A model generated the notes under the pieces. That model was not told the origin of the DNA and ran no database searches. It saw nothing but the letters and a program-made list of their open reading frames with translations. Below, in pieces: positions 21,651-43,143 of a stretch of DNA of 64,000 nt. Position numbers and translations under genes: made by a program. Positions within the stretch are counted from its first letter, which is position 1; each line of letters opens with the position of its first letter. Source of the stretch: Dehalococcoidia bacterium (lineage in GTDB: Bacteria > Chloroflexota > Dehalococcoidia > Lucifugimonadales > UBA3495); assembly GCA_965261885.1 (NCBI GenBank), contig CBDHDY010000039.1:10802-74801 (forward strand), given 5' to 3'.

Positions 21651-24600
21651 CTAAATTCCTCCCAGCGCCTCTCGCTCTTCTTCCTCTTCATTGGCGCCCA
21701 CGATGGCATCGTCCAGTTGTCGGAGCAAGGTCTTGGCCCAGCGACTCACCTCTGGCTTCGAATGTTGGAGGAGCCTGCCAATTGGCTCTTTGTAGAGGGT
21801 GTAGTAGTTAGTTCTTGACCCGAACCAACCGAAGGTTCGGATATTGCTCTCTACGGCTTGCCGGACGTCATCGCGGTCCCCGAACTCATTGAGCAGGTGG
21901 GCCATGACTGGATGCAGCGATCGCTCTGAGGCCGCGGTCTCCTGCGTTGTGAGGACTGGTACGAGCTTCGCGGTGTATGCCGGTGCACGTTCGGGGTGGG
22001 CGTGGCACCAGGCGAACAAGGTGGACTCCGGCAGGCTTAGAATCACGGGATTAGGCTTGCGTTCAATAGCGTATTGGTCTCCCAAGATAGAGGTCAAACG
22101 TGAAGCTCTACTTTGGTCGGAGACGATTACTTGGCCAACTAGCGGCCATGCAACCTCGGGAAAGCGCGACAGCAGATCAGAAAGGATCGTCTTTCCTAGG
22201 AAGCCGCAGTCGAAAGCCTCTACATTTGCCAACGCCTTTGCCAGAGCCAACGCCGTATTACTGGCGCAAGAGTCCTGCCTGCCCTTCCGAAGCGTCTCGT
22301 CCATGATTTGCTCAAAGCGATATTGCGATAAATTCCAGTCCCGTGCCGGTTGCCATCTTGTAGAGTTCTCCGCGAGCTTCAAGACTTGAGGATGAAGACC
22401 ATCCAGTTTCTTGGGCGAATTGAAGGCATATTTGTGCATAAGATCCACCGCTGCGGTGAATCCTTCGGCGCTGTGTTCAAGCAGCGTATCGAATAGAGGG
22501 GCAATCTCCCGAGCTGGAATCTCGGCAATTACCCAAGCATGTAGCCATTCGCTCAATCGCAGCGGAGGCAACACACCACCTTTAAGGGCGTCAATTGCCA
22601 GCTGAACATCGGAGGCGTCGATGCTGCTCCTCCCCCAAATCTGAGGCAGTGCCGAAGCAAGTTCGCGTGACCGAGCCGCTCTCTGCTTGAATGCAACCAC
22701 TACGTGCGGATGGTTCGTAGCCAGATGGGTGATGAATCCTGACAGCAAGTCATGGTTACGCTCACCCTCAGGGGCTTCTACAACAGCCTCTATAAATGGC
22801 TCCAACCATTCCAGTGGTGAGCTGGCAAGGTCGGCGACGGCGGCTCCGAATTGATAGGCCATTCTCTGCTGGCCACGGCTGAGTTGAGGCAAGGACGCCG
22901 CAAGAGTTGGTGGCTGCTGCAACAACTCGGCGGCCAATCCGTGCACCGCTTCAACTCGACATTGTTCCAGTAGACGGAAATCTGGTTCCCTGCTCTCAAG
23001 GTCGCCCCACGACATCTCCGTCACCGTCGAACGTATACGCGCCTCCAAGCCCCTAGGCTGCAACTCCTTTAACAGCTCTCTGACCCGCTCGGTTAATTCA
23101 GGGGTCATGTTCTCAGCATCAAAGGCAATAACAGCACGCACGCTCGTCATTCCCTCTGGCCAATAATCCTTCGCAGCACTCACTTCTGAGACAACTTTTT
23201 TCGCTGTATCAATGAACCCCTCACGGATCAGAATGGGCAGAGAATTACCAAGCCCTGAACGAGCAGAAATTCCAGCCAGGTCATCGTTCAAGGCGAACTG
23301 CGCGAGCCGTGTCGCACACCCATCTATGTAATTGACCACCTCTTCTTTGGTGTCCGGGCACCAAGATACCAGTGCTGAGCTAGACCCCTGGGACTCCGGG
23401 CCCAGCATCCGCTCAAAGGTACCTATCTCGCAGCCGCTGATCAGAGCATCACAAATGATCTCGCGCCGAGCAGGGTCGGCAGAGCCCGCGGCCTCATCCA
23501 GGAAAGAGAGTCGAGCAACGCCGTCGGCCGCCGTGCCGCCTAGGAGCATGGGGAAAAGCCCCTTGAATTTGCCGAGAGCGCCGCTTTCCCAACGAAGGTG
23601 CCAGAGGTCACTCTTCGCTGTAAGCCTGGATACAATCTCGTTTTCGTCGGAAGCGACGCGCAGCAAGAGACGCGCGCCCTCCTCAAATGTGTGGACATGG
23701 AAGGCGATCTTCTCCAAGGCCTGGACAAGGGCTCGTCGCGCGTCACTTCTGATTTCAGACAAGTCTTGGACATTTCCGAGTGATCGTTCTATCTGGTCTG
23801 CGACTGCCTCCGGGTCTACCTCGGCAAGGGCAGACCAGACCTCGGTGTAGGCTAACGGAGCGGTCCGTCCCAAACCGTCGAAGGGACCACCACGCCGGCA
23901 AACATGGGAGACCACCTTCCGGGAGACCTCGGTAGTGTTGAGCAGGGCCAGTTGTTTAGCCGCCAATGTCTTGAGACCAGGGCTGATGTCGCCAGACAAC
24001 ACCCTCTCCCAAGTGCTGGCAGGCCACTCTTTCCATTGGCGCTCCGCCAGTTTCATTGCGACCGGCCGTGGTTGGAGAGTGACAAATCTCCCTCGCCGCT
24101 GGACGACCCCTCGGTCGACCAGTTGGGCGACAGCGGCGTATAAGTCCTCGGTGCTGAGGCTGCGTCCCAAGCTGGCGATCTCGCTGAGTTGACCGTCAGC
24201 CTGGGGGCCTACGTCAACCAGACCGAACACAGCCAGCAGCGCCGCCGACTTGCGCAGCAACTCAGGGTCTCGGGGACTTCGTCCCAAGACGAAGGTGTCG
24301 ACGAAATGGTCGTCTGTGGCGTGGGCGACGGGTCTTGATTCGCTCCACGTCTTCCCGACGCGGACCGCAACCTCCGGGAAGCCCTTGGAAAAATGCTCAA
24401 GCCGACTCCGGTCCTCGTAAGGAAGGCCCGAGGAGACATGGCTGATGATGCCTTCTGTGACGGGGGGCGGAGCCTCCTCGATCCTCAATGTGGTCCCGTC
24501 CAGAGTTCCAATGGGAATTTCGTTGTCGATGGTCACCAACGACAGATGGCTACCCTGGTGCAAAACCATGGCTGAGAGCCCTTGATGGGACTCAGGACCG

Positions 24601-25718
24601 CAGTTGTCGACGACCACGACGGCGCGCTGGGGCGTAACTGCCAGGGTCTGAACAACCTCGCTTATAGCCGCGTAGCTGGTCTCAGTCTCGATGGCGTATA
24701 TGATCAGGTCGCTGGCAGAATTGCTTGCCTCATCTTCACCCTCCGTAGCTCTGAGGGCTTCAAGCACTAGACGGGACTTGCCGACGCCAGACAATCCGAC
24801 TAAGCGCAGGATTTGTCGGGGCGTCTCTACTATATCGCGGAGGCGGTCGCGCAAAGAGGACAAGCGCGCATCTTCCACCCACGGGGATTGATCGTGTTCG
24901 GCGCGGCCAGCCCAGTGGTTCCAGGAGCGGAAGGGACCGATGGTTCCGTGTGTCTGTTCCTTCACCCATGTGGCGACTGCAGGGTGGCTATTTACCCACG
25001 TGGCGATCTGTTCAGCGTCCCAAAAGTCGACCTGCTCGTCTTTGATGGTCATGCCGGTATAGCGGAGTTCTTTGCGAATGCGGGCTTTTCGGTGATTGAT
25101 TTCCCTCCCACTGTAGGGGTGCGCGCAGAGCATGATGTAGTGGCCGCCAATCTCGAGGGCAGAAAATATCATGTCCTTGACTGCGCCCTTGATCAGGACG
25201 TCCTTAGCTGCCGCTCCCGGCGATATCTTGCCGGCCTTCAACTGAAAGTGGTTGAGCCGGGAAGGAAGGAAGGACGTGCGCTCCGGGCCAGCCGTCCATG
25301 TGATGCTCCCGTCCTCCCCACCGTCTGGGACATGAATATTGCTAGCCACCCGAATGCCATCAGCCGGGAGACTGTGGGTTTGGGCTTCGGCACTCAGCAG
25401 CTTCCTCAGGAGCAGTGGCAGGTCCCGTTCTCGCAGAACCGAAATGTGGCCTCCGGTTACCTCAAACGGGCCGGATCCGAAAGCGATGACTGGTCGAGGC
25501 ATACCACCCCCCAGAGTGATAATCCCGGCGGGATTGGCCTCCAACAACCGCAACAGATTTATAACTGAGGCGGCGGGCTTTACGGTTCCGGCTTCGTACT
25601 TAGTGAAGGAGCTGGGGCCGCCTCCGATGAGTTCACCAGCCTCCACCTGTGATAGGCCCAAGCGTTCCCGAATGGAGCGGATCTCACTAGGTGCGAGTTC
25701 TTGTCTAATCCTAGACAT
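21651..25718 (-). CDS. XRE/MqsA-like HTH + PD-(D/E)xK-like nuclease + STAND-type P-loop NTPase + long helical repeat region (Avs/NLR-like defence protein)
   Basis: N-terminal IRSIRERLGLSQVEAGELIGGGPSSFTKYEAG, then PDGGEDG...HFQLKAG, Walker A GLSGVGKS, Walker B VVVVDNC, and ~850 aa alpha-helical C-terminus. ATG at 25718 with GAGG RBS; ~1355 aa. Confidence 0.8.
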   Translation of the reverse strand: MSRIRQELAPSEIRSIRERLGLSQVEAGELIGGGPSSFTKYEAGTVKPAASVINLLRLLEANPAGIITLGGGMPRPVIAFGSGPFEVTGGHISVLRERDLPLLLRKLLSAEAQTHSLPADGIRVASNIHVPDGGEDGSITWTAGPERTSFLPSRLNHFQLKAGKISPGAAAKDVLIKGAVKDMIFSALEIGGHYIMLCAHPYSGREINHRKARIRKELRYTGMTIKDEQVDFWDAEQIATWVNSHPAVATWVKEQTHGTIGPFRSWNHWAGRAEHDQSPWVEDARLSSLRDRLRDIVETPRQILRLVGLSGVGKSRLVLEALRATEGEDEASNSASDLIIYAIETETSYAAISEVVQTLAVTPQRAVVVVDNCGPESHQGLSAMVLHQGSHLSLVTIDNEIPIGTLDGTTLRIEEAPPPVTEGIISHVSSGLPYEDRSRLEHFSKGFPEVAVRVGKTWSESRPVAHATDDHFVDTFVLGRSPRDPELLRKSAALLAVFGLVDVGPQADGQLSEIASLGRSLSTEDLYAAVAQLVDRGVVQRRGRFVTLQPRPVAMKLAERQWKEWPASTWERVLSGDISPGLKTLAAKQLALLNTTEVSRKVVSHVCRRGGPFDGLGRTAPLAYTEVWSALAEVDPEAVADQIERSLGNVQDLSEIRSDARRALVQALEKIAFHVHTFEEGARLLLRVASDENEIVSRLTAKSDLWHLRWESGALGKFKGLFPMLLGGTAADGVARLSFLDEAAGSADPARREIICDALISGCEIGTFERMLGPESQGSSSALVSWCPDTKEEVVNYIDGCATRLAQFALNDDLAGISARSGLGNSLPILIREGFIDTAKKVVSEVSAAKDYWPEGMTSVRAVIAFDAENMTPELTERVRELLKELQPRGLEARIRSTVTEMSWGDLESREPDFRLLEQCRVEAVHGLAAELLQQPPTLAASLPQLSRGQQRMAYQFGAAVADLASSPLEWLEPFIEAVVEAPEGERNHDLLSGFITHLATNHPHVVVAFKQRAARSRELASALPQIWGRSSIDASDVQLAIDALKGGVLPPLRLSEWLHAWVIAEIPAREIAPLFDTLLEHSAEGFTAAVDLMHKYAFNSPKKLDGLHPQVLKLAENSTRWQPARDWNLSQYRFEQIMDETLRKGRQDSCASNTALALAKALANVEAFDCGFLGKTILSDLLSRFPEVAWPLVGQVIVSDQSRASRLTSILGDQYAIERKPNPVILSLPESTLFAWCHAHPERAPAYTAKLVPVLTTQETAASERSLHPVMAHLLNEFGDRDDVRQAVESNIRTFGWFGSRTNYYTLYKEPIGRLLQHSKPEVSRWAKTLLRQLDDAIVGANEEEEEREALGGI

Positions 25719-25752
25719 ATTGACCTCTAAGATGTAATGCACTATGGTATCA

Positions 25753-25763
25753 ACCATTATGGT
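25753..25763. promoter_or_regulatory. Palindrome ACCATTATGGT, candidate operator in the divergent promoter region
   Basis: Perfect 5-1-5 palindrome ~35 bp upstream of the STAND gene start, with a partial repeat ACTATGGT at 25741-25748. Confidence 0.3.
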
Positions 25764-25949
25764 CATATTCGCTGAGCAAAAGCAACGCTCTTAGAGACGA
25801 TGGGCGTGAATGGCTGGGCTGCGGGGACTTAGCTCGGCGTTGGGAACGAGGATTGACGAGTTGAACCCTGTGAGTCGACACTGAATGCTGGCCATTTGAC
25901 CACACGGGGTTCTGGGCTCAGGCGGCCAATCAACTCAGCGGTGAATGAC

Positions 25950-28900
25950 ATGGAAAACCCGTTCTACGACCGGCCGATACTGAACTCGCCCTATGATTAC
26001 CCCTACCGGCACTGGGAGCTGGACGAGACTGGGCAGCCTACCCAGCAGGTCATTGAGAGCCGACGTGGGGCCGAGTTCATTACGCCCATTCCCAAGCCGA
26101 GGCAGCGGGGAAGGGCGCGCGGTGGACGCCAGGAGCAACTGGTCTTCGACGAAGGGCAGGGTCTGTCCACGGCAGAGCAACAGTATGACGTTACTGCCGC
26201 CGTCAACGAAATTCGCCGGTACGTCGACCAGTGGCGCGACATCCCCAACCCGCGGGACTGGGGTGTGACGCCGGAGACGGCCCTGCTGCTCCAGCACTGG
26301 CGGCACCACAAGTTCAGCCATTACCGTCCCTTCTTCTGCCAGGTCGAAGCCGTTGAGACGTTAATCTGGCTGACCGAGGTCGCGCCGCGGCTCGGGCAGG
26401 GGGAAAGGCTGGCACTCCAGCGTCTGGAGAGCGCCAGCCTGGAGGCGAACCCGGAACTGTTGCGGGTCGCGCTGAAGCTGGCAACCGGGGCGGGCAAGAC
26501 CACGGTGATGGCCATGATCATCGCGTGGCAGACAATCAACGCCGTCCGGCATCCCAACAGCCGGAGGTTCACGCGGGGCTTCCTGGTGGTCACCCCCGGA
26601 ATTACCATCCGGGACCGGCTGCGGGTGCTGCAGCCTAACGACCCCGACAGCTACTACGCCAGCAGGGAACTGGTGCCCACCGATATGCTGGGCGACCTGC
26701 AGCGGGCCAGGATAGTCATCACCAACTATCATGGCCTCCGCCCCAGGGAGCGATTGTCGATATCCAGCGGCGGGAGGGACTTGTTGCAAGGGCCGGGCGA
26801 GCCCATCGAGACCGTGGAGTCCGAGGGCCAGATGATGCAGCGGGTGATGCCCGAACTGATGGCCCTCAAGAACATCATGGTCCTAAACGACGAGGGCCAC
26901 CATTGCTATCGCCAAAAGCCCGGTGAAGATGACGAGGGCCCTCTGACTGGTGAGGACAAGCGGGAGGCAGACCAGAACACCGAGGAAGCCAGGGTGTGGC
27001 TCTCCGGGCTGGAGATGGTCAAGAGGAAACTTGGTGTACGTCAAGTGGTGGACCTGTCGGCCACGCCCTTCTTCCTGCGTGGCTCCGGCTACGCGGAGGG
27101 CACTCTGTTCCCCTGGACCGCCAGCGACTTCTCGCTCATGGACGCCATCGAATCCGGGATCGTCAAGCTCCCGCGGGTTCCGGTGGCGGACAACATCCCG
27201 GGAGCCGACGTACCGGTGTTCCGAAACCTGTGGGAGCACATCCGCAAGGACATGCCTCGCGCGGGAAGGGGCCGGTCGGGTGACCTGGACCCACTGGACC
27301 TTCCCACGCCGTTACAGACTGCCCTAGAGGCCCTGTACGGCCACTACGAGAAGACTTTCAATGAGTGGGAGGCGGACGGCACTCCCTGTCCACCCTGTTT
27401 CATTGTCGTTTGCAACAACACGGCCACATCCAAGCTGGTCTACGACTATATATCAGGGTTCGAGCGCACCAACGAGGACGGCACGACCTCGGTTGTTAAC
27501 GGGAGACTCGCACTGTTTCGGAACTTCGATGAATACAACAACCGCTACTCCGTTCCGCGCACATTGCTGATCGACAGCCATCAGTTGGAGTCCGGGGAAA
27601 AACTCAGCGATGACTTCCGCCGCGCCGCTGCCGATCTGATAGAGCGGTTTCGGCGGGAACGCCAGGAGCGCACTGGAAATCGCGAGGAGGCCGACAAGAT
27701 CTCGGAGCAGGAACTCCTGCGCGAAGCAATGAACACGGTCGGCAAGGAAGGGCGGTTAGGACAGAACATACGCTGCGTGGTGTCTGTGTCCATGCTGACC
27801 GAGGGGTGGGACGCCAGCACCGTAACCCACGTCCTGGGAGTCCGGGCCTTTGGAACGCAGCTCTTGTGCGAGCAGGTGGTGGGTCGGGCCTTGAGGCGCC
27901 AGTCCTACGAGTTGAACGAGGGCAACAAATTCGACGTCGAGTACGCCGACGTGCTGGGTATTCCCTTCGACTTCACCGCCCGTCCGGTCGTGGTAGGCCC
28001 GGGCAAGCCGCGGCAGACGGTGCAGGTGAGGGCGATGCGGCCCGAGCGGGACCACCTCGAGATCACGTTCCCGAGAGTAGCCGGCTACCGGGAGGATCCA
28101 CCCAAAGAGGACTTGGTCGCCAATTTCACCGGTGACTCACGGCTGGACTTGACGCCAGACCTGGTGGGGCCAACACAGACCAGGAATGAAGGCATTATCG
28201 GCGAGGGAGTGGATCTGAACTTGGTACATACCGGCGACCTGCGCATGTCGACACTGGTGCTGCACCTGACAAAGCGGTTGCTGGAAACCAAGTGGCGGGA
28301 TCCCAACGAGGAGATGAAGCTGCACCTGTTCGGCAAGCTGCGGAACGTGGTCAAGGAGTGGCTGGACAACTATCTGGACTGCAGGGGTGGGACCTATCCG
28401 GCGCAGCTGATGTACCAGTCGCTGGCGGACATGGCCTGCAACCGCATCACCGCCGCCATCACCAGCAGGTACGGCGAGCGGTCCGTCAAGGCGCTGCTGG
28501 ACTCGTTCAACGCCACCGGCTCAACTCGCAACGTGAACTTCACCACCTCGCGGGAGGGATTGTGGGCCACCGACGCCCGCAGGTGCCACGTTAACTATGT
28601 TGTGCTGGACAGCGACTGGGAGGCCGAGTTCTGCAGGGTGGTGGAGTCGCACCCCTCCGTAAGGGCCTACGTTAAGAACCACAACCTGGGCCTGGAGGTG
28701 CCGTACCTGTATGGCTCCACGCCCCGGCGCTATTTCCCCGACTTTATTCTGCTGGTGAATGAAGGGAACGAAGACCCGCTCCACCTTATCGTCGAGATCA
28801 AGGGTTACCGGGGCGAGGACGCCAAGGAAAAGAAGAACACCATGGAAGCCTACTGGCTTCCGGGTGTGAACGCCCTCGGCAGCTACGGTCGGTGGGCCTT

Positions 28901-29120
28901 CGCCGAGTTCACCGACGTATTCGACATTGAGGCTGGCCTGCGGCAGGTAATTGAGTCGCACCAAAGAGAACACGGAAATAGATCGCCTGACTATAGCGGT
29001 CTCAGTTTCAAGGAACTGCTGGTATCTGGTCCTTCGTTTGACGGTCTGGAACTGACGCGATCTGCCGACTACGGACGCGATGTTTCTTTTCTCTATGACG
29101 ACGGCGGCGAGTCCCATTAG
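25950..29120 (+). CDS. res: Type III restriction enzyme Res subunit (BPTD_3080-like) with C-terminal antitoxin-like extension
   Basis: PILNSPY..P.RHWELDE N-terminus, LKLATGAGKT, LNDEGHHCY, DLSATP, SVSMLTEGWDA, EQVVGRALRR, nuclease YFPDF...IVEIKG. About 50 extra C-terminal residues. Confidence 0.92.
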   Translation: MENPFYDRPILNSPYDYPYRHWELDETGQPTQQVIESRRGAEFITPIPKPRQRGRARGGRQEQLVFDEGQGLSTAEQQYDVTAAVNEIRRYVDQWRDIPNPRDWGVTPETALLLQHWRHHKFSHYRPFFCQVEAVETLIWLTEVAPRLGQGERLALQRLESASLEANPELLRVALKLATGAGKTTVMAMIIAWQTINAVRHPNSRRFTRGFLVVTPGITIRDRLRVLQPNDPDSYYASRELVPTDMLGDLQRARIVITNYHGLRPRERLSISSGGRDLLQGPGEPIETVESEGQMMQRVMPELMALKNIMVLNDEGHHCYRQKPGEDDEGPLTGEDKREADQNTEEARVWLSGLEMVKRKLGVRQVVDLSATPFFLRGSGYAEGTLFPWTASDFSLMDAIESGIVKLPRVPVADNIPGADVPVFRNLWEHIRKDMPRAGRGRSGDLDPLDLPTPLQTALEALYGHYEKTFNEWEADGTPCPPCFIVVCNNTATSKLVYDYISGFERTNEDGTTSVVNGRLALFRNFDEYNNRYSVPRTLLIDSHQLESGEKLSDDFRRAAADLIERFRRERQERTGNREEADKISEQELLREAMNTVGKEGRLGQNIRCVVSVSMLTEGWDASTVTHVLGVRAFGTQLLCEQVVGRALRRQSYELNEGNKFDVEYADVLGIPFDFTARPVVVGPGKPRQTVQVRAMRPERDHLEITFPRVAGYREDPPKEDLVANFTGDSRLDLTPDLVGPTQTRNEGIIGEGVDLNLVHTGDLRMSTLVLHLTKRLLETKWRDPNEEMKLHLFGKLRNVVKEWLDNYLDCRGGTYPAQLMYQSLADMACNRITAAITSRYGERSVKALLDSFNATGSTRNVNFTTSREGLWATDARRCHVNYVVLDSDWEAEFCRVVESHPSVRAYVKNHNLGLEVPYLYGSTPRRYFPDFILLVNEGNEDPLHLIVEIKGYRGEDAKEKKNTMEAYWLPGVNALGSYGRWAFAEFTDVFDIEAGLRQVIESHQREHGNRSPDYSGLSFKELLVSGPSFDGLELTRSADYGRDVSFLYDDGGESH

Positions 29121-29545
29121 TGCATTTGCTTGATACAAACGTCGTCTCAGAATCGCGGAAGCGGGAGAGATGCGACGAGAATGTGACTACCTGGTATGCC
29201 AGCATTCCAGACGGAGACCTGTTTCTCAGTGTTCTGACATTGGGCGAAATTCGCAAAGGAATCGTGCTGGTCCGCGACCGTGCCCCCGGGCAGGCTGAAG
29301 CTCTTGAAAGTTGGCTGACGTTCGTGAAACAGAACTACGAAGGTCGGATTTTGCCAATCGACGCTGACATTTCGGACGCCTGGGGCCAAATGAACTATGT
29401 TCGAAACGTTCCCGTAGTCGACGGCCTTCTTGCCGCCACTGCTAAGGTTCACAATCTAACGTTGGTAACTCGCAATATTCAGCACATGCAGGGCCTGGGC
29501 GCGAGCTTGCTCGATCCCTTTGCCCCTGCTACCGGAGGGCAATAG
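29120..29545 (+). CDS. vapC: PIN domain VapC-family ribonuclease toxin
   Basis: LLDTNVVSE, TLGEIRKG, VDGLLAATA, LVTRN show all acidic PIN residues. The GTG start overlaps the res TAG stop. Confidence 0.93.
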   Translation: MHLLDTNVVSESRKRERCDENVTTWYASIPDGDLFLSVLTLGEIRKGIVLVRDRAPGQAEALESWLTFVKQNYEGRILPIDADISDAWGQMNYVRNVPVVDGLLAATAKVHNLTLVTRNIQHMQGLGASLLDPFAPATGGQ

Positions 29546-29547
29546 CC

Positions 29548-32406
29548 ATGCCCCGAGCACGACGCAACCGCAGCGCCGCCGGAAAGTCGGTGGAGGCGCT
29601 GCGCCACGAGGCGGACACCCGCACCAACATCCCCACGGCCGAGTACCAGTCGATGGTGGAGGATGACACGGAGTCGCCCGTCCGCGTAGCCTACCAGCGG
29701 CGCAACCGCGACCTGGACCCGCAGCTGGTCTGGCGGGGCAAGGACGAACAGGACCTGGATGACCTGGTGGTCAACGTGCCGCCCCTGTACATCCAGGAGA
29801 AGGTGCACCCCAAGGTACTGATCGGCGACCTGCTGCGCCAGTCTCGGAACGGCAGCCAGCCGTCCGAGTACCAGGTGGACATGTTCGCCGACTTCAACGG
29901 GCTGCCCGAGGGCGCCGACCGCACCGAGTTCTACCAGCACGAGGGCTACTGGCAGAACCGCATGGTCCTGGGCGACAGTCTGCAGGTGATGGCCTCGCTG
30001 GCCGAGCGGGAGGGCTTGCAGGGCAAGGTGCAGTGCATCTACATCGATCCGCCCTACGGCATCCGCTTCAACTCCAACTTCCAGTGGTCCACCACCAGCC
30101 GCGACGTGCGCGACGGCAACCGCCAGCACATCACCCGCGAGCCCGAGCAGGTCAAGGCCTTCCGCGACACCTGGCGCGACGGCATCCACTCCTACCTGAC
30201 CTACCTGCGGGACCGCCTCACCGTGGCCCGCGACCTGCTGGCCGACTCTGGCTCCATCTTTGTGCAGATCGGCGATGAGAACGTCCACCGGGTGCGTGTG
30301 GTGTTGGATGAGGTGTTTGGGGAAAAGAATTTTGTAAGCCTAATATCTATTCAAACAACAACTGGTTTCCAGTCTGAATATGTTGGAAATATCTCGGACT
30401 ATGTTCTTTGGTATGCGAAGAGAAAGGAGACTGGCAAATCTAAGAATCCGTACTTTAGGAAAAACTTCCAAATAGGTGAGGGTAATGCGCGATGGCTGAT
30501 GTTTCAGGACTTCACACACCGAGGGGTAACAGCGTCCGAAAGGAGAGCCGGCGAAATTCCTGATGGATCAAAACCCTACGCGCCAGACAATCTAATTTCG
30601 CAGGGTCGATCTCGCAGTCAGCAGCCGTTTGCTTTTCAAAATAAGACCGACGATCCGTGGAATAAGAACTCCCATTGGAAGGCCAATTATCCGGCAGGAA
30701 TGAAGCGTCTAGCGAAGGCTGGACGGTTGCATACTGCGGAAAATTCTATACGTTTTGTACGGTATCACGCGGATTTTGAATTGGCTGTTCATGGCAATAT
30801 TTGGACCGATACGAGTACAGGCAATTTCACAGACGACAAGACCTATGTCGTACAAACTAACTCCAAGGTAATAGAACGTTGCATCCTGATGACCACTGAC
30901 CCCGGCGACCTGGTGCTGGATCCCACCTGCGGCTCCGGCACCGCTGCCTACGTGGCCGAGCAGTGGGGGCGGCGGTGGATCACCATCGACACCTCCCGAG
31001 TCGCCCTGGCTCTGGCCCGCGCCCGCATCATGGGCGCCCGCTACCCCTACTACATCCTCGCCGACAGCCGGGACGGGCAGCAGAAGGAAGCCGAGATCTC
31101 CCGCCGCGCCCCGTCGGAGATGCCCACCTACGGCAACGTGCGGCAGGGGTTCGTCTACGAGCGGGTGCCCCACATCACCCTGAGGGACATCGCCAACAAC
31201 GCCGAGATCGACGTCATCTGGGAGGAGTACCAGGAGAAGCTGGAGCCGCTCCGGGAGGAGCTGAACCGGGCGCTGGAGAACACGTGGGAGGAGTGGGAGA
31301 TTCCGCGTGACGCCTACGAGTCGTGGTCAGAGGAGACCTTGGAACTGCACCGGCAGTGGTGGGAGCAGCGCATCGCCCGGCAGAGGGAGATCGACGCCTC
31401 CATCGCTGCCCGGGCCGAGTACGAGTACCTGTACGACAAGCCCTACGAGGACCGCAGCAGGGTGCGGGTGGCCGGCCCGTTCACCGTGGAGAGCATCTCG
31501 CCCCACCGGGTGCTGGGCGTAGACGAGAACGGCGAGGTGATCGACGGCATCGCCGAGGCCCGCAACGGCTACGGCACGGGCTACGACTTCGGCCAGATCA
31601 TCCTGGACAACCTGAGGCGCTCCGGCGTGCAGCAGGCCCACCGCGAGGACCGCATCACCTTCACGTCGCTGACGCCATGGCCGGGCCGGTTTGTCTGCGC
31701 CGATGGCCGGTACGTCGAGGGCGGCAGCGGGGATGACGACGATGACGCGACAACCGGTCCCGAACGGAGGGCGGCGGTGTTCATTGGCCCCGAGTTCGGC
31801 ACGGTGTCGCGTCCCGACCTGGTGGAGGCGGCGCGGGAGGCAGCCGACGGCGGTTTCGACGTGCTCATCGCCTGCGCCTTCAACTACGACGCCCACACCA
31901 CGGAGTTCGAGAGCCTGGGGCGGGTGCCGGTGCTGAAGGCCCGCATGAACGCCGACCTGCACATGGCCAGCGAGCTGCGCAACACCGGCAGCGGCAACCT
32001 GTTCGTCATCTTCGGCGAGCCGGACATAGATGTGCTGGACGCCGGGGACGGGCAGGTCAAGGTGCGGGTGAACGGCGTGGACGTGTTCCACCCCAACACC
32101 GGCGAGGTGCGCAGCGACGGACCGGAGGGCATCGCCTGCTGGTTCATCGACACCGACTACAACCAGGAGAGCTTCTTCGTCCGCCACGCCTACTTCCTAG
32201 GCGCCGGCGACCCCTACAAGTCGCTGAAGACCACCCTCAAGGCCGAAATCGACGAGGACGCCTGGGCCACGCTGCACAGCGCAACCTCCCGCCCATTCCC
32301 GCGCCCGGAGTCGGGGCGGATAGCCGTCAAGGTCATCAACCACCTGGGCGACGAGGTCATGAAAGTGTTCCGGGGGGGGGTGACGTGGCCGGTTGGCCTG
32401 ATATGA
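29548..32406 (+). CDS. mod: Type III R-M DNA methyltransferase (Mod)
   Basis: YIDPPYG catalytic motif IV, VLDPTCGSGT SAM-binding motif I (beta class), and a C-terminus ending IAVKVINHLGDEVMKVF. 952 aa. Confidence 0.93.
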   Translation: MPRARRNRSAAGKSVEALRHEADTRTNIPTAEYQSMVEDDTESPVRVAYQRRNRDLDPQLVWRGKDEQDLDDLVVNVPPLYIQEKVHPKVLIGDLLRQSRNGSQPSEYQVDMFADFNGLPEGADRTEFYQHEGYWQNRMVLGDSLQVMASLAEREGLQGKVQCIYIDPPYGIRFNSNFQWSTTSRDVRDGNRQHITREPEQVKAFRDTWRDGIHSYLTYLRDRLTVARDLLADSGSIFVQIGDENVHRVRVVLDEVFGEKNFVSLISIQTTTGFQSEYVGNISDYVLWYAKRKETGKSKNPYFRKNFQIGEGNARWLMFQDFTHRGVTASERRAGEIPDGSKPYAPDNLISQGRSRSQQPFAFQNKTDDPWNKNSHWKANYPAGMKRLAKAGRLHTAENSIRFVRYHADFELAVHGNIWTDTSTGNFTDDKTYVVQTNSKVIERCILMTTDPGDLVLDPTCGSGTAAYVAEQWGRRWITIDTSRVALALARARIMGARYPYYILADSRDGQQKEAEISRRAPSEMPTYGNVRQGFVYERVPHITLRDIANNAEIDVIWEEYQEKLEPLREELNRALENTWEEWEIPRDAYESWSEETLELHRQWWEQRIARQREIDASIAARAEYEYLYDKPYEDRSRVRVAGPFTVESISPHRVLGVDENGEVIDGIAEARNGYGTGYDFGQIILDNLRRSGVQQAHREDRITFTSLTPWPGRFVCADGRYVEGGSGDDDDDATTGPERRAAVFIGPEFGTVSRPDLVEAAREAADGGFDVLIACAFNYDAHTTEFESLGRVPVLKARMNADLHMASELRNTGSGNLFVIFGEPDIDVLDAGDGQVKVRVNGVDVFHPNTGEVRSDGPEGIACWFIDTDYNQESFFVRHAYFLGAGDPYKSLKTTLKAEIDEDAWATLHSATSRPFPRPESGRIAVKVINHLGDEVMKVFRGGVTWPVGLI

Positions 32407-32458
32407 ATTGCGCCACTATGCGTGTAATTTTGGAACTCAAACTGGCAACGTGGATCAG

Positions 32459-33826
32459 ATGATGCTTTACCGACCATTTGCTGAACGACTTGACGATGTT
32501 TCTCCGGAGGAACTCGATCGGCTCAAGGGGGTTCACGAGGGGTGGTACGTAGAATACAAGGAAAAACTTGTCTCCAATAGGGACTTGGCCAAGAGCCTGT
32601 CGGCATTCGCCAACCAGTATGGTGGCTGGTTGTTCTTGGGTGTCAAGGAGGATGCCCAAGATAATGTAGCGGCTAGCTTTCCAGGAATCCCTGATTCAGA
32701 AATACAGAGCGTCTTAGATTCACTAAGAAACTCGGCCAAAGATTTGTTGAACCCCACCGTCTATTATAATGTTAGGAAATTTGAAGGCCCTATCGGTTCA
32801 ATAGGACTTCCTGCGGGGCGGACAATAGTAGTAGTCCAAATACCCGAAGGCCCGAACTCACCCTACATTCACAATGACGGGCGAATTTACCGTAGGGTCG
32901 GTGATTCATCTCAACCTACACCCGTAACAGACCGCACGACATTCGACATCTTGGCTCAAAGGGGAGAGGAAGCTAGACTAAGGCTTGCCGAAAGGGTCCT
33001 ATGGAGCCCGGCGATCTCACAGGCTGAAGAGGAACAGTCGTTCCTACACCTTAGCATCCTTTCTGATCCTTACGAAACCATGGGGCACTGGTATAGTGGT
33101 AGTTTTGCAGACTTTTCTACAATTATGCAAGAGTGGACACTGCCTTTCGACAACATTTTTTCTACCTCGAATGGGTTTATTGCGAGGCAAGTAAACCAAA
33201 ATAACCCGATCTATAGGGTATTCACATGGCATTTCGACAGGCAGTGCCACTCGTTTGTAACCATACCTATTCCCACGATTCAGGCATCCTTTGGAGATCC
33301 CATATGGGACAATTATACAATCGGAGACCGTTTTGTAGATGAACTAGTGCGTAGAGGAATAACCTTTTCTAGAATATTAGATTTGAATGCGATAATCGAC
33401 ATTATCGGATCAATAATGAGGCGACATCGGATATTGACAGGAAATGCAAAGGTCACTGGGCCCTTTTACATGAAATCTCATCTGGAAAACATATGGAGAT
33501 GTATCCCATTTGTTGACAATTCTGCGTATTTGCAACATGTATGTAAGTTTGGTTTTCCGGTAATTCAAGACTCGAGCTTAGTCGTACCACCGGGTAAATC
33601 GCTCGAAACTTTCGTAGTGTCTCCAGAGATAGCGACAATACCTTCTGAAGAAGAGCTTCTATCCTATGATGGCCCAATACGTTTGAGTATGATTATCCTT
33701 AATGCCCTTGGAATGCCAATGGAAGTCCTTGCTCGGTCAATAGATGAACTTCACGGAATGGGCAAACGGAGAATGGCTGCTCAGATTAATATTAACGATA
33801 ATCCTGAACCAGGCGTTACATCTTGA
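32459..33826 (+). CDS. AlbA_2 (Schlafen-like) domain protein with uncharacterised C-terminal domain
   Basis: EGWYVEYKE...LAKSLSAFANQYGGWLFLGVKE ... YRRVGDSS. A/T-rich compared with its neighbours. Confidence 0.85.
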   Translation: MMLYRPFAERLDDVSPEELDRLKGVHEGWYVEYKEKLVSNRDLAKSLSAFANQYGGWLFLGVKEDAQDNVAASFPGIPDSEIQSVLDSLRNSAKDLLNPTVYYNVRKFEGPIGSIGLPAGRTIVVVQIPEGPNSPYIHNDGRIYRRVGDSSQPTPVTDRTTFDILAQRGEEARLRLAERVLWSPAISQAEEEQSFLHLSILSDPYETMGHWYSGSFADFSTIMQEWTLPFDNIFSTSNGFIARQVNQNNPIYRVFTWHFDRQCHSFVTIPIPTIQASFGDPIWDNYTIGDRFVDELVRRGITFSRILDLNAIIDIIGSIMRRHRILTGNAKVTGPFYMKSHLENIWRCIPFVDNSAYLQHVCKFGFPVIQDSSLVVPPGKSLETFVVSPEIATIPSEEELLSYDGPIRLSMIILNALGMPMEVLARSIDELHGMGKRRMAAQININDNPEPGVTS

Positions 33827-33888
33827 TTCGAATAGCTGCACTTAAAAGATTTACATCGACACACGACAATTTTAGATCCGTTTGAATC

Positions 33889-35967
33889 GTGCAATTTCGC
33901 ATAGCCGACACCTTCACCGCCAGCCTCGCCAAGCTGCCCAACGACCAGCAGAGGGCGGCGAAGACCACCGCCTTCGACCTGCAGACCAACATCGCCCATC
34001 CCAGCCTCAGCCTGCATCGTGTGACCGGCACCAGGGACCCCGGCTTCTGGTCGGCGAGGGTGAACCTCGTCCTGCGCATCATCCTGCACCGAGCTGGGGA
34101 GAACGTCGTTCTCTGCTACGTGGACAGCCACGACGACGCCTACCGCTGGGCGGAGCGCCGTCGTCTGGAGACGCACCCCACCACCGGCGCAGCGCAGCTG
34201 GTGGAGTTGCGGGAGGTGGTGCAGGAAGTGGTCGTTCCGGTCTACGTGGAGACCGAGCAGCAGGCTCCCGCTAAGCCGTTGCCCTTCGCCCGGATCCCCC
34301 GCGAGCAACTGCTGGGGTACGGCGTGCCTGAAGAGTGGCTAGACGACGTCAGGGCCGCCACCGAGGATAGCGTGCTGGACCTGGCAGACCACCTGCCGGC
34401 CGAGGCCGCTGAGGCCCTGCTGGAACTGGCCGTGGGCAGGACTCCGCAGTCGTCGCTACCCGTACCGGCGGGAGGGGACCCCTTCAGCCACCCCGACGCG
34501 ATGCGTCGCTTCCGCGTCATGAACAACGTCGAGGAACTGGCAGCGGCCCTGGAGTACCCGTGGGAACGGTGGACTGTCTTCCTGCACCCGGACCAGTCGG
34601 GAATCGTAGAAAGAAACTACAACGGCCCGGCCAGGGTGTCCGGCTCCGCGGGCACCGGCAAGACCGTTGTCGCCCTCCACCGGGCGGCTCACCTGGCCAG
34701 GTCCAACCCGGACGCGCGGGTGCTGCTGACCACCTTCTCCGACACGCTGGCCAACCAGTTGCGAACCAAGCTCGGGTTCTTGATGAACAATGAACCCGAG
34801 GCGTTCGCTAGGCTCGACGTCCAGTCACTGGACGCTGTGGGCCTGAACCTCTACGAAGCACATTGTGGCGTGCCGGCATTGGTGGGACGGGAGACAGTTG
34901 AGGAACTACTTCAAGATGCCGCCGCCGCAGTGGGAACCAACTTTGCCTTGACATTTCTGATGTCAGAATGGGAGCGAGTGATTGACGCCTGGCAGTTGGA
35001 GGCCTGGGACAACTACCGGGACGTTCGCCGCATCGGCCGGTATAGAAGGCTGTCTGAGGCCCAGCGAGAGGCGCTGTGGCCGATGTTCGAGCAGGTCAAG
35101 GCAGGACTTCGGGAGGGAGGGTTGATAACCTGGGCGGGAATGTTCGGTCGGCTGACTGAGGAAGTCGCTGGACAGGTGTCTGCGCCGTATCAGTACGTCG
35201 TTGTCGATGAAGCTCAGGACGTCAGCGTTCCCGAGCTGAGATTTCTCGCTGCCTTGGCCGGTGGCACACCGAACGGCCTCTTTTTCGCTGGAGACCTCGG
35301 GCAACGAATATTCCAACAGCCATTCTCTTGGCGGGAACTTGGAGTAGACGTGCGAGGCCGATCACAGTCCCTGCGGATCAACTACCGCACTTCGCACCAG
35401 ATCAGGACCCAGGCTGACCGCTTGTTGGATCCCGAGTTGTCCGATGTGGACGGGAACACGGAAGGGAGGAAGGGAACCGTCTCGGTCTTTAACGGACCGA
35501 ACCCAACCGTGCTGGTGCTGGATGACGGGGAGGCGGAATCCGTCGCAGTTGGCGAGTGGCTGAGGGCGAGAGTCCACGACGGCCTGAACTCCGACGAGAT
35601 GAGCGTTTTCGTCCGGTCCCCGGAGCAAATAGACCGGGCCGTGGCCGCCGTGAAACACGCCGAGTTGCAGAACGCGGTACTTGATGATCGTGCTGGGGAA
35701 GTCGAGGGTTCTGTAATCGTCGCCACGATGCACCTTGCTAAGGGTCTTGAGTTCCGGGCAGTTGCGGTGATGGCCTGTGACGGCGAGGTTATCCCACTCC
35801 AATCCAGGGTCGAGTCAATCGTCGACGAGGCGGACTTGGAGGAGGTCTACAACACTGAGCGGAACCTGCTCTACGTCGCCTGCACCCGAGCCCGGGACCA
35901 CCTGCTGGTAACCGGGGTCAAGCCCGTTTCCGAGTTCCTGGATGACCTTGTGATCAACGACAATTAG
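33889..35967 (+). CDS. SF1 UvrD/Rep-like helicase with N-terminal RelE/ParE-like domain
   Basis: N-terminal ~90 aa (F..SLAKLP...SLHRV...FWSARVNLVLRIILH...CYVDSHDDAY). GSAGTGKT, VVDEAQD, GDLGQRIF, NYRT, TMHLAKGLEF, LLYVACTRAR. Confidence 0.88.
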   Translation: MQFRIADTFTASLAKLPNDQQRAAKTTAFDLQTNIAHPSLSLHRVTGTRDPGFWSARVNLVLRIILHRAGENVVLCYVDSHDDAYRWAERRRLETHPTTGAAQLVELREVVQEVVVPVYVETEQQAPAKPLPFARIPREQLLGYGVPEEWLDDVRAATEDSVLDLADHLPAEAAEALLELAVGRTPQSSLPVPAGGDPFSHPDAMRRFRVMNNVEELAAALEYPWERWTVFLHPDQSGIVERNYNGPARVSGSAGTGKTVVALHRAAHLARSNPDARVLLTTFSDTLANQLRTKLGFLMNNEPEAFARLDVQSLDAVGLNLYEAHCGVPALVGRETVEELLQDAAAAVGTNFALTFLMSEWERVIDAWQLEAWDNYRDVRRIGRYRRLSEAQREALWPMFEQVKAGLREGGLITWAGMFGRLTEEVAGQVSAPYQYVVVDEAQDVSVPELRFLAALAGGTPNGLFFAGDLGQRIFQQPFSWRELGVDVRGRSQSLRINYRTSHQIRTQADRLLDPELSDVDGNTEGRKGTVSVFNGPNPTVLVLDDGEAESVAVGEWLRARVHDGLNSDEMSVFVRSPEQIDRAVAAVKHAELQNAVLDDRAGEVEGSVIVATMHLAKGLEFRAVAVMACDGEVIPLQSRVESIVDEADLEEVYNTERNLLYVACTRARDHLLVTGVKPVSEFLDDLVINDN

Positions 35968-36924
35968 CGCATTGCCACACCAATAACGTTACTGAAATTC
36001 TAACCGCAATTCCTGTTCCAACCAAAGATGATTCGCCACTGTAAAGCTGTCCCACTGCAGGCTTATCGGAAGCAGCGTAGACCAGCCTCTTGACCATGAC
36101 GCCCTTCACACCTGCCCCTTTCAGTGAGGCGGGCACCCCCTCGGGGGGCTGCGGGTCTGTGCGTCAAGAGTGTTCCCCCGGAGGCGCGGGCGAAAGGACG
36201 TTAAAAAGTCCTGGGGTGTCGTTAGACCCCGGTTTTATTACGGAGCCGTTTGATGCCATGCGGCACCCCGGAGCCAGCCTTGCGGCGGCGGCGATGAGCA
36301 GGTGCTGGCGGGGTGTCGTTAGACGCCCGTTTGTAGAGCGTATCCTCTAGCAATACAGTGTTCTAATGCCTGCTGGAAAAGGTGCGCGATATTCTGACAT
36401 TACCAGCGGGAATGCAAGAAATGGAACAGACCTGATGGCCCTACGACGCTGTGAACCGGTTCCGTTTGCTTGTAGCGTATGGACAACCCGGCCAAGAAGT
36501 TCCCGGCCGTCGCGGCTTCTCCATCCGGCCCTCCAGGATGGCTGGCCCTGTGGGCCAACACTGCCTCAATCTTGTGGTTCTGCCGCATAGCCTATAAGCA
36601 ACCGGAACTGAAGTGACAGTGTACGGGGGGTGTTCCATACTCTCCTTCACCTACGGTTACGCCCGAGCCGCTGTCTTTCAGTGATGGAACCGCACCTTCC
36701 CGAATGGGAGGGCCTAACTTGGCTCAAGGAGAACCTAGTGAGCCGAAGGGTCCTTACTTGGCTGACCAACCTACCCAGAATTAAGGACCTCCATGTTAGG
36801 ATTCACTCTGGAATTTTTGAATGTGGACCTACCTCGCACTGGCGGGGCTATGGGGCCACTCCAGGGCCGAGATGATATCGGGCCGTCGATGCGAGTCAGG
36901 CGGCAGTGACGCTGTGGGTGCGCA

Positions 36925-38166
36925 ATGACTAACCTCTCAAACTCAACGTTTGGCTGGTTGGACAGTAGTGAAGACGAACGCCGGGCGGTGCTGGAACTCG
37001 TCTCGGCGCTCAATGAGCCGGGAACACTCGACGAATTGGGGATCGGCAGCATCCGCGACACGATTGCGGACGCGCTCTTCCCGGGGACCAGCACGATCCA
37101 GACCAGAGCCCGCTACTTTCTCTTTATCCCCTGGATCCTGCAGATGGTCGAAGGGAGCTCAGCTCGTCGTGCTGAGGAGCGCACGCGCCAGTTGCAGCTG
37201 CAACTCTGCGATGCCCTCGACAAGTCCCACGGCCCCAATGAGGGGGTGATCGGGCGCGAGGCCAGGAATGCCCTCCAACGATGGCCCCTGTCGATTTACT
37301 GGTTGGGTCTGGCTAGGTGGGGAATTCGACGGCACTCGGGGTCGATTCCGTCTTATTTCGCGACCATTAGACAGCCATCTTCGTGGCTCCTGGCCGGCCG
37401 GGCGCTGGAGGAACAGGTGGAGGGTCGACGGGACGAGGCTGCCGATGGCGTCCGGGGGAATTGGGCTGACGTCCCGAAGCCACCCACCGGCTTTCCCGAA
37501 ATCGCGTCCTTCGCGCTGACCGCCGAGGAGGGGCATTTCCTCCGCGAACGAATCGTCCTCACTCACCCGCAGACCTACCTCGCACACATCTTGCGGACGA
37601 ATGAGGCCGAGGAGTCCAGATCTGGCATTTTCCCGTGGGATCATTCCGCAGCGCAAACGGCGCCGGCATCCGTGCAGGGGTGGCTTCATGACGCCCGCCT
37701 GTTCAGTCTGGTCCACCAGGGCGGAACGCTCCTCTATGACCACATGCTGGCAGAGGCGTTGGAGGACGAGGAAAGTATCGACGATTTCTCCGGGGAGCTC
37801 GGGGTATGGTCCGAGTCGATGGCAGCGGCTGAGCCCGAGCTCGAACGCTGGGACCGCGCTGCCATGTGGCAGCGTCTCCGTAGTGCGAATCCGAGGCTGC
37901 GCAGGCGCACGGAGGAGTTTGCCGACCGCTGGTACGTCCTCGCAGCGACGCAGCCGGGTTCGTCCCTAGTGGGTCGGCGGGAGGCGCGGGATCTCATACG
38001 TCAACGCGAGCATGCACTGAAAGGGGCGCGCGCACGGCTGACGTATGCTGAAGCTCGCGACCGCCGCCGGGGTTACCCAACGTCGGCGCGCCTGCAATTC
38101 CGCTGGCTGCAGGTGCAACGGATTACCGCCGACATCCTGCAGGCACTGGGAGCCGCGGATGCTTGA
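36925..38166 (+). CDS. DUF6361-like protein
   Basis: FGWLD...GTLDELGIGSIRDTIADALFPGTSTIQTRARYFLFIPW is the N-terminal signature I associate with DUF6361. 413 aa. Confidence 0.75.
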   Translation: MTNLSNSTFGWLDSSEDERRAVLELVSALNEPGTLDELGIGSIRDTIADALFPGTSTIQTRARYFLFIPWILQMVEGSSARRAEERTRQLQLQLCDALDKSHGPNEGVIGREARNALQRWPLSIYWLGLARWGIRRHSGSIPSYFATIRQPSSWLLAGRALEEQVEGRRDEAADGVRGNWADVPKPPTGFPEIASFALTAEEGHFLRERIVLTHPQTYLAHILRTNEAEESRSGIFPWDHSAAQTAPASVQGWLHDARLFSLVHQGGTLLYDHMLAEALEDEESIDDFSGELGVWSESMAAAEPELERWDRAAMWQRLRSANPRLRRRTEEFADRWYVLAATQPGSSLVGRREARDLIRQREHALKGARARLTYAEARDRRRGYPTSARLQFRWLQVQRITADILQALGAADA

Positions 38167-43000: not shown

Positions 43001-43143
43001 GGCGGTCGCTGGCCGTGTACCGCATGGTCTTCGGACAACCCCGGCAGGATGATTTGCTCGAGTTCATCCTGCGCGAGATCCCCGACGATCATCGGGACGG
43101 CCTTGCGGCAGCATTGACGATCGACCTCAGCCCACCGGTGTGA
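39997..43143 (+). CDS. SF2 (SNF2-like) helicase
   Basis: LIADEVGLGKT, ILDEFQ, LLSATP, SVGQEGLDFH, EQREGRVHRY. GTGA overlap with the PLD stop. Confidence 0.9.
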   Translation: MKAAESVLGGLKRFQRQTAEYAFHRLFKCADSSRRFLIADEVGLGKTLVAAGVIALAIDHLSALNTPRVDIIYICSNQAIARQNIERIKHRLSIDTEALAERITLLPYRLRTLDQPVNLIALTPGTSFGSAQAEGVVEERVILFRMLTRAWGSLGPDARQVFRGNLRSVARFREYESGIPDYPIDQGIVKRFRDAVGGPGWPLHREFIRVRDLIATRRDQESMEQRRRFIAKLRRLLAHACLDALEPDLVILDEFQRFRDLMDEGTTSGELARRLFEYEDRHTQVRTMLLSATPYKMYTLSHEADDDHYRDFLKTIDFLEGPGGSVEPLEESLRQFRAELPLAAQGGEAGPEATCRLSEHRIRIQSSLLRVMSRTERHGRVAGGDPMLAATEMAVDLQVDDVEAYLEAREIAAAVEAPGVMEYWKSTPYLLSFMDRYQLSERVLATVQKEPDGAVAQLIRRSSGLQLPRQVAAQRDPVDGGNGRMRAFLGDIAESHLHRVLWLPPSLPAHTLGHDFERARTATKRLVFSSWAMVPRAIAVMASYDAERHCIPEPMRAARYEAQLLNMTGTAYSLFALLVPSATLADAGDPLRYPRGDATELLRAIEERLRPQVAELTRNSPTAGPPQEIWYAAAPLLLDRQTPGTMRWLQGPARGASTSGGTDDPEPTAWHSLAARVTEGIADPARMGRPPRDLVEVMAELAAGSPANATLRALSRISSTSTAGSELKTEAMRAGWAFRSLFRTPTSEGLLRNAYQPAVPGGQGEYWRRVLAYALEGGLSAVLDEFFHVIRESLGAETGASALVDTLCQALRLAAVSLDVSAWESGTTGVRRETFPMRQHFARRYANDGLSGSDQQASEHLDVVRAAFNSPFWPFVLSTTSVGQEGLDFHWYCHAVVHWNLPPNPVDLEQREGRVHRYHGHAIRKNIAQAVGSTALDKARAATAGGEFLNPWDAAYQLADDEFAGDGGLIPHWVFPEDDARIQRYSPVLPLSRDADRMAALRRSLAVYRMVFGQPRQDDLLEFILREIPDDHRDGLAAALTIDLSPPV

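Follow-up and report, generated by a model that had tools for sequence, protein, structure and literature searches.

A res–mod–helicase restriction-modification core with two cargo hot spots and a putative antitoxin peptide on Res in a Dehalococcoidia bacterium

Type III restriction-modification (RM) systems such as EcoP15I are encoded by two genes in the order mod to res, where Mod carries an N6/N4 methyltransferase domain and Res combines a superfamily 2 (SF2) ATPase with a C-terminal endonuclease. Their cleavage of DNA depends on ATP and requires two unmethylated sites. The locus described here lies at positions 25950–35967 of a 64,000-nucleotide stretch of DNA, hereafter the window, from a Dehalococcoidia bacterium of the phylum Chloroflexota (GenBank assembly GCA_965261885.1, contig CBDHDY010000039.1). 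It encodes Res and Mod proteins with the same domain content, but the gene order is res to mod, each of the two proteins is far larger, with about 1000 amino acids (aa), and there is a conserved third gene coding for a helicase. Two other genes, encoding a PIN-domain protein and a Schlafen/AlbA_2 protein, are nested among these three. Co-oriented defence genes embedded in multi-gene systems have already been documented (Payne et al., bioRxiv 10.1101/2024.01.29.577857), with Hma, BREX and DISARM as well as RM systems of type I as hosts. As at this locus, the genes embedded in those hosts are nested, co-oriented and diverse, and are also found outside the host. The res–mod–helicase host, whose Res protein belongs to the BPTD_3080 family, is not covered by that study, and here part of one cassette appears to be fused to a host protein.

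This apparent fusion is reminiscent of the FitAB and VapBC toxin-antitoxin systems, because the PIN protein matches FitB and the C-terminal tail of Res is homologous to the C-termini of antitoxins encoded upstream of such PIN proteins. However, the locus lacks a separate antitoxin gene, the DNA-binding domain of an antitoxin and the fourth acidic residue of the toxin, and the Res tail has no sequence match to FitA. An RNase toxin gene located inside an RM operon is also found at the EcoprrI type Ic RM locus, where the toxin PrrC is held latent by an RM protein. We propose a comparable arrangement here, in which the toxin would be held latent by an RM protein. The components differ, since PrrC is an ABC-ATPase joined to a HEPN-type nuclease and has no antitoxin peptide, whereas here the toxin is a PIN domain of the VapC/FitB type, with an antitoxin segment on Res as the proposed link. 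Finally, the helicase can be compared with multidomain RelE/ParE toxins of the BECR fold, for which a published survey (PMC11980606) describes fusions of this fold to other domains in a defence context. At this locus the fold instead heads a superfamily 1 (SF1) helicase that accompanies an RM pair as a fixed component, and no antitoxin for it is encoded.

Direct reading of the sequence shows that the interval is filled by five long open reading frames (ORFs) on the plus strand, which are listed below together with the Res tail.

25950–29120, + strand: res, restriction endonuclease of the BPTD_3080 family, 1056 aa, core (NF046055, Pfam)
28959–29117, + strand: C-terminal tail of Res, codons 1004–1056, putative fused antitoxin-type peptide (...FKELLVSGPSFDGLELTRSADYGRDVSF...; hhalign)
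29120–29545, + strand: FitB/VapC-like PIN protein, 141 aa, cassette in hot spot 1 (Pfam, FitB structures)
29548–32406, + strand: mod, type III-like N6/N4 DNA methyltransferase, 952 aa, core (Pfam, PADLOC)
32462–33826, + strand: Schlafen/AlbA_2 protein, 454 aa, low-GC cassette in hot spot 2 (Pfam, AlphaFold2 model and Foldseek)
33889–35967, + strand: RelE-fold–UvrD helicase, 692 aa, core (RelE-like fold over aa 1–100, 33889–34188; helical linker; SF1 UvrD-like region over aa ~234–690)

A first-pass annotation of this DNA had described five co-oriented genes separated by overlaps or short gaps, and the sequence confirms this arrangement, with no gap exceeding 62 nt. Its domain calls (BPTD_3080 Res, PIN, Mod, AlbA_2 and RelE-like–UvrD) were likewise borne out by Pfam, NCBIfam, PADLOC, and AlphaFold2 (AF2) models compared by Foldseek. 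The res stop codon TAG (29118–29120) contributes its G as the first base of the PIN start codon GTG at 29120, giving the sequence TAGTG. The PIN stop at 29545 is followed after 2 nt by the mod ATG at 29548, which has a GGAGGG motif 8 nt on its 5′ side. Gaps of 55 nt and 62 nt then separate the mod stop (32406) from the AlbA_2 ATG (32462) and the AlbA_2 stop (33826) from the helicase GTG (33889), respectively. The AlbA_2 ORF opens earlier, at TTG 32408. Its start is most likely ATG 32462, because a database protein of 99% identity is 454 aa long and homologs begin with M-x-Y-x-P-F. Similarly, the Res start is ATG 25950 and not the upstream TTG at 25896, because the match to NCBIfam NF046055 begins only a few residues downstream of this ATG.

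For the locus as a whole, the explanation that we consider fairly probable is an RM core with two cargo hot spots, in which the Res tail silences the PIN toxin and the AlbA_2 gene is a passenger. The core is the most secure part of this explanation. Res scores 1307 bits against NF046055 (BPTD_3080; cut-off 800) over ORF residues 25–1018, and contains the Pfam domains ResIII (171–391), which is the SF2 ATPase, and RE_endonuc (900–980), which is the C-terminal endonuclease domain. Mod matches Pfam N6_N4_Mtase at 1e-31. The PADLOC models gave a mixed outcome, with a strong MTase_III assignment for Mod (PDLC03632, 1354 bits), a weak REase_III match for Res (E 7e-7) and no match for the AlbA_2 protein, which also lacks an NCBIfam match. 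A literature search for BPTD_3080 found no papers. Membership in the Hma group was also considered and rejected, as no Hma model is present among the PADLOC matches listed for Res, Mod and the helicase (the best 25 for Mod and the helicase).

Comparative analysis was based on 80 loci retrieved with Res, designated here by L numbers, while a scan of genome contigs indicates at least 578 res-related stretches. The 80 loci come mostly from metagenome-assembled genomes of Dehalococcoidia, but also from Nitrospira, Planctomycetota, Acidobacteriota, Proteobacteria, Latescibacterota and others. Searches by tblastn with the window proteins show that res, mod and the helicase gene occur together across this collection. 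The helicase is present in 52 of the 56 assessable loci, defined as those with a complete mod gene plus sufficient downstream sequence, and it is full length and 55–65% identical even in other phyla. In a sample of 400 genomes from the phylum of the window, three of six full-length helicase orthologs are directly preceded by mod, and the other three have little or no flanking sequence. A PIN of the window type is found in only 16 of the 80 loci, and a homolog of the AlbA_2 gene in two (L008 and L012). This gene-neighbourhood survey of BPTD_3080 loci therefore separates a res, mod and helicase core from variable cargo. We conclude that the locus very likely consists of a conserved three-gene, type III-like RM core (Res, Mod and the RelE-fold–UvrD helicase) with two hot spots for cargo.

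One peculiarity of the core is a G9 tract at the extreme 3′ end of mod, within its last codons (32375–32406). The Mod proteins of orthologs end in ...KVFRVG, and in the window the frame is shifted by one base such that eight residues are added (...RGGVTWPVGLI). The shift may reflect a sequencing error in the homopolymer, or the tract may be prone to slippage.

The hot spots are evident from the spacing of the core genes. Across the compared loci, res and mod are 32 nt to 3 kb apart and mod and the helicase gene 3 nt to 4.9 kb, and the extra space in both gaps is occupied by co-oriented ORFs. Of 60 ORFs in hot spot 1, between res and mod, 25 encode PIN domains belonging to several families, and the others include NYN, AlbA_2+HATPase_c_4, PDDEXK nucleases of the YhcG type, HepT, Fic, Bro-N and a small number of transposases. 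Hot spot 2, between mod and the helicase gene, holds ABC-type ATPases (AAA_21/AAA_15), nSTAND3, pairs of a subtilase (S8) and an AAA protein, HerA+SIR2, DUF5677, KAP NTPase and AlbA_2. For example, loci whose Res proteins are 72–93% identical to that of the window carry AbiJ_NTD4, DUF5677, AAA_21 or AAA_16 proteins at the position of the AlbA_2 gene. The two positions vary independently of each other, and cargo turns over even among loci with Res proteins more than 90% identical. In the manner of embedded cassettes, the cargo genes are nested and co-oriented, vary among related loci and occur elsewhere too. Base composition agrees with this division into core and cargo, since the GC content at third codon positions (GC3) is 0.80 for res, 0.83 for mod and 0.77 for the helicase gene, compared to 0.59 for the PIN gene, 0.44 for the AlbA_2 gene and 0.49 for the last 53 codons of res.

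The low GC3 of these last res codons draws attention to the C-terminus of the protein. In loci without an insert, Res ends near residue 1003, whereas in loci with a PIN of the window type it is longer by 35–53 residues with the motif FKELL..xP..(D/E)G(L/I)(D/E)L.R....(G/P)RD(V/I).F. The arginines R1037 and R1043 are among the conserved residues of the tail. Along res, GC3 drops from ~0.8 to ~0.45 exactly at codon ~1004. No ORF lies between res and the PIN gene, and the tail is not a separate gene, because no in-frame ATG, GTG or TTG is present past codon 973.

The relationship of the tail to antitoxins was established by comparison with free-standing PIN genes. In L081, a free-standing PIN that is 65% identical to that of the window is preceded by an ORF of 94 aa that overlaps it by 4 nt and ends in ...LKALLAAAPFDGIDLERIRDTGRKVDL. 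More than 1100 unannotated proteins of ~94 aa make up the family to which this ORF belongs. In L081, L087/88 and L089/90, three of four loci inspected, a member of this family lies directly upstream of a FitB-like PIN gene, with a 4-nt overlap, and the PIN proteins are 51–65% identical to that of the window. The fourth homolog (L091) has no adjacent PIN. When a profile of 17 Res tails was compared by hhalign with one of 29 proteins of ~94 aa, the tail aligned to their C-terminal 34 residues with a probability of 98.6 and an E value of 1e-15. A direct BLASTP comparison of the tail with the antitoxin of L081 had produced a misalignment (E 0.18), and it was the profile–profile comparison that then gave the alignment. 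In addition, the tail profile was searched against 1.84 billion representative proteins and yielded 257 matches at E ≤ 0.001, most of them proteins of 60–100 aa matched at their extreme C-terminus and some of them fragments of Res.

The distribution of the tail follows that of the PIN gene. A tail is present in all 15 scorable loci with a PIN of the window type and in four loci without that PIN (Fisher p = 2e-11, uncorrected for phylogeny), and in L047, the 16th PIN locus, the tail is rearranged and was missed by the tail pattern. At the four tail-bearing loci where a different gene occupies the PIN position, the product is an NYN protein of 241–269 aa (L023, L027 and L041) or a Fic protein (L068). 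In these cases either the toxin was swapped behind a kept tail or the tail is a leftover. Pairwise dN/dS values against relatives are 0.14–0.35 for the tail and 0.11–0.17 for PIN, which indicates purifying selection on both.

Similar fusions to other antitoxin families are found at other loci. The end of the L074 Res protein is 65% identical (E 4e-15) to the C-terminus of a separate antitoxin of 75 aa (compared with that of L003), which precedes a different PIN of 140 aa in L003, L005, L006 and L009, while the PIN behind the L074 Res is a decayed remnant. Likewise, the Res proteins of L010, L011 and L020 end in a sequence similar (E 1e-18) to a separate 129-aa protein of L013 that precedes a third PIN family. 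In L012, L019, L022 and L053, Res ends in ...GGSEPxxxDIPRRR before a VapC of 124 aa. L053 has a truncated form of this VapC, and none was found in L022. Judging from its motif, this Res tail may represent a fourth type of antitoxin. The presence of four antitoxin types on the same end of Res, with the fourth recognized by motif only, argues for function over accident.

The putative partner of the tail is a PIN protein (Pfam PIN, 7e-12) whose closest relative of solved structure is FitB of the FitAB complex (2H1C/2H1O/2BSQ, E 2e-14). The acidic residues D5, E43 and D101 are retained, and N119 is aligned with D122 of FitB. The nearby residue H122 is replaced by Asp in L007, L016, L018, L028 and L081, which include free-standing relatives and several embedded ones.

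The Res-tail antitoxin reading is supported in combination by the homology of the tail, its co-occurrence with PIN, their common foreign composition, translational coupling, purifying selection and the fusions at other loci. Because the C-terminal part of type II antitoxins such as those of VapBC and FitAB is generally the segment that binds and neutralises the toxin, the Res tail would be expected to bind and silence PIN, and we consider it likely, judging from sequence comparisons, that the tail is the neutraliser of PIN. Presumably, the PIN gene arrived as a toxin-antitoxin cassette whose antitoxin lost its N-terminal domain, and what was left of it, a toxin-binding peptide from the C-terminus, was joined in frame to the end of Res. 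Res would then bind PIN through its tail and keep it inactive. If Res were lost, truncated, degraded or blocked, PIN would be set free to cut RNA, and the cell would be arrested. Such release might serve as a backup to restriction or as a penalty for the loss of res. We place far less confidence in any statement on what releases the toxin than in the assignment of the tail as its neutraliser.

Several observations weigh against this reading. The tail matches no Pfam or NCBIfam family, and a search of its profile against PDB sequences returned chance matches only, with no solved antitoxin and no FitA among them. The co-occurrence statistics for tail and PIN ignore the shared ancestry of the loci. 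The PIN of the window may also be attenuated, given that the fourth acidic residue is absent (N119, H122), and in relatives that keep the tail, PIN can be truncated or decayed (L004, where it is shortened to 90 aa, L053 and L074), as happens in the ordinary erosion of toxin-antitoxin systems. Finally, the five-gene run is predicted to form one transcription unit, and this prediction comes from a consensus scan only.

The second cassette of the window encodes the Schlafen/AlbA_2 protein, which scores 66 bits against Pfam SLFN_AlbA_2 (cut-off 25.3). Its AF2 model has a mean predicted local distance difference test (pLDDT) score of 83. Over its first ~170 residues, the model matches the nuclease domains of SLFN13, SLFN11, SLFN14 and SLFN5 (Foldseek probability 1.0) as well as the tRNase domain of SAMD9, and the C-terminal ~270 residues have no match in PDB by Foldseek. 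Residues E27 and E32 of an ExxxxE motif show no variation across 28 homologs, and a GV motif is followed by an ED pair. By sequence, we read E27 and E32 as the probable Schlafen catalytic glutamates. The gene has an overall GC content of 0.45, and neither direct nor inverted repeats flank the cassette. Its homologs comprise 349 proteins, all of them unnamed, and are encoded by single genes that are located beside an MTase-HNH gene, in a defence island behind an MmeI-type enzyme, or on their own. The AlbA_2 gene thus appears to be an autonomous single-gene passenger rather than a specific partner of the RM system.

The helicase matches Pfam UvrD-helicase and UvrD_C from aa ~234 onwards. Its first 100 residues are highly conserved, with R57, R63, H67, H81 and Y85 among the positions that are invariant in 40 orthologs. 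This N-terminal region has no significant Pfam match (HigB-like_toxin reaches 12.9 bits against a cut-off of 27, E 0.15), and its profile found nothing among PDB sequences. In the AF2 model, pLDDT is 85–93 over aa 1–100, and Foldseek matches this region to YoeB, YafQ, RelE and HigB at probability 1.0, with E values down to 5e-5 and template modelling (TM) scores of 0.65–0.75 normalised to the target. Furthermore, a distant full-length homolog matches Pfam YafQ_toxin at 1.6e-5 (25.5 bits, below the gathering score of 30). According to the structural model, the N-terminus of the helicase is RelE-like at the level of fold.

No antitoxin ORF adjoins the helicase gene, even in loci where mod and the helicase gene are separated by 3–50 nt. 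Because there is no accompanying antitoxin gene, the RelE-fold domain is not a usual toxin of a toxin-antitoxin system, and it seems to belong to the core machine. We know of no described role for a RelE-fold helicase. ParE-type members of the RelE/BECR fold are not RNases, according to the survey mentioned above (Gerdes, mBio 2025, PMC11980606), and its main text makes no mention of UvrD or helicase fusions.

The helicase also has more distant homologs in different contexts. In L123 (G094:C1, 4322–13116, minus strand), a RelE-fold–UvrD homolog of 33% identity overlaps the end of the gene for a 2209-aa DEAD/Helicase_C/MZB protein of the DUF1998 type, which suggests that the helicase family also partners with DISARM-like helicases. 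The genome of the window itself contains a fragment of 85 aa (C25:92214–92468, minus strand) that is 80% identical to helicase residues 42–126 and has an internal TGA. It looks like the pseudogene remnant of a second copy of the helicase.

The first-pass annotation had interpreted the locus as one integrated layered system, in which all five genes act together and three RNases aimed at translation (PIN, AlbA_2 and RelE-like) back up DNA restriction. The co-orientation and tight spacing of the genes, the confirmation of all three folds and the lack of a convincing internal terminator are in keeping with this model. Nevertheless, we regard it as quite unlikely, given that an AlbA_2 homolog is found at this site in two of the 80 loci and the window PIN in 16, that the two positions change independently and hold different cargo where Res is more than 90% identical, and that AlbA_2 homologs stand singly beside unrelated RM systems. 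The helicase, moreover, is part of the core and not an accessory. The proposal of a single layered five-gene system was therefore abandoned on account of the independent variation and turnover of its cargo. The accompanying suggestion that the effectors are inserted cassettes holds for PIN and AlbA_2, but not for the RelE-like–UvrD protein, with its presence in 52/56 loci and its core-like GC3. Another model, in which the cassettes are selfish elements at a permissive and well-expressed site and the Res fusion is an insertion accident unlinked to restriction, might account for the foreign base composition of the cargo, the transposases in the same gaps and the rapid turnover. This seems very unlikely in light of the several antitoxin families found on the same end of Res (three by similarity to separate antitoxins and a fourth by its tail motif), the purifying selection on tail and PIN, and the conservation of the 1-nt overlap between stop and start codons.

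Of greater weight is the possibility that the tail and PIN merely stabilise res or the island through addiction, whereby every frameshift, nonsense mutation or deletion in res takes away the tail and kills the cell and no phage is sensed. Since the tail is at the very end of a 1056-aa ORF, nearly every disruptive mutation in res would remove it, and both the conserved translational coupling of res and PIN and the recurrence of comparable fusions with other antitoxin families speak for this model. However, tails outlast decayed PIN genes in L074, L004 and L053, showing that the pairing is not strictly kept, and both hot spots otherwise hold defence-type cargo. We view pure addiction as unlikely, if still worth serious consideration, and it is in any case compatible with a role in defence. 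The reading in which the Res tail silences PIN within an RM core can also be extended in the other direction. The Res family might serve as an antitoxin for embedded toxins, with at least four peptides grafted independently onto its C-terminus and the toxin monitoring whether Res is intact or available, such that a phage that destroys or sequesters Res, or halts its synthesis, would free PIN and abort the infection. The helicase might then be the unrecognised third subunit of a new RM type with its own RNase-like effector. This extension is tentative, and we judge it possible but somewhat improbable.

With regard to transcription, the consensus scan found no convincing promoter or terminator between the following two flanking sites, both of which are weak and were identified by that scan only.

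25720–25748, + strand: promoter-like site, TTGACC-17-TATGGT, overlapping the 5′ end of the divergent PD-Lambda-4-like gene
36211–36232, + strand: terminator-like hairpin plus T-run, ~245 nt past the helicase stop

There is no Rfam match in 25600–37000. The 957-nt spacer between the helicase gene and zacA contains two exact copies of the 15-mer GGGGTGTCGTTAGAC (36213–36227 and 36310–36324; 97 nt apart, 0.03 copies expected by chance), the first of which forms the terminator-like hairpin, and these repeats likewise have no match in Rfam.

The five-gene run is located in a defence island, with a PD-Lambda-4_A-like gene upstream and ZacA/ZacB/ZacC downstream as identified by PADLOC. The PD-Lambda-4_A-like protein (1371 aa; 21651–25766, minus strand) has an MqsA-type helix-turn-helix (HTH) domain at its N-terminus, and its gene is divergent from res, with which it has a common intergenic region of 183 bp. 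This HTH domain could also influence the res promoter. Downstream and co-oriented with the run, the genes for ZacA, ZacB and ZacC (DUF6361, PLD-like and DEAD helicase; 36925–43143) have strong PADLOC matches and constitute a third defence system.

Defence genes are known to be embedded in RM and BREX operons and others of this sort, whereas the wiring of embedded toxins to their host system is for the most part not known. The present analysis defines a widespread three-gene res–mod–helicase system with two hot spots that can be mined for new defence genes, and proposes one concrete form of such wiring, in which the toxin-binding part of an antitoxin is carried on the restriction nuclease. Comparable fusions involving other antitoxin families have arisen separately. 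If it is true that Res neutralises PIN, this would provide a simple molecular route from the failure of restriction or the loss of res to the arrest of growth.

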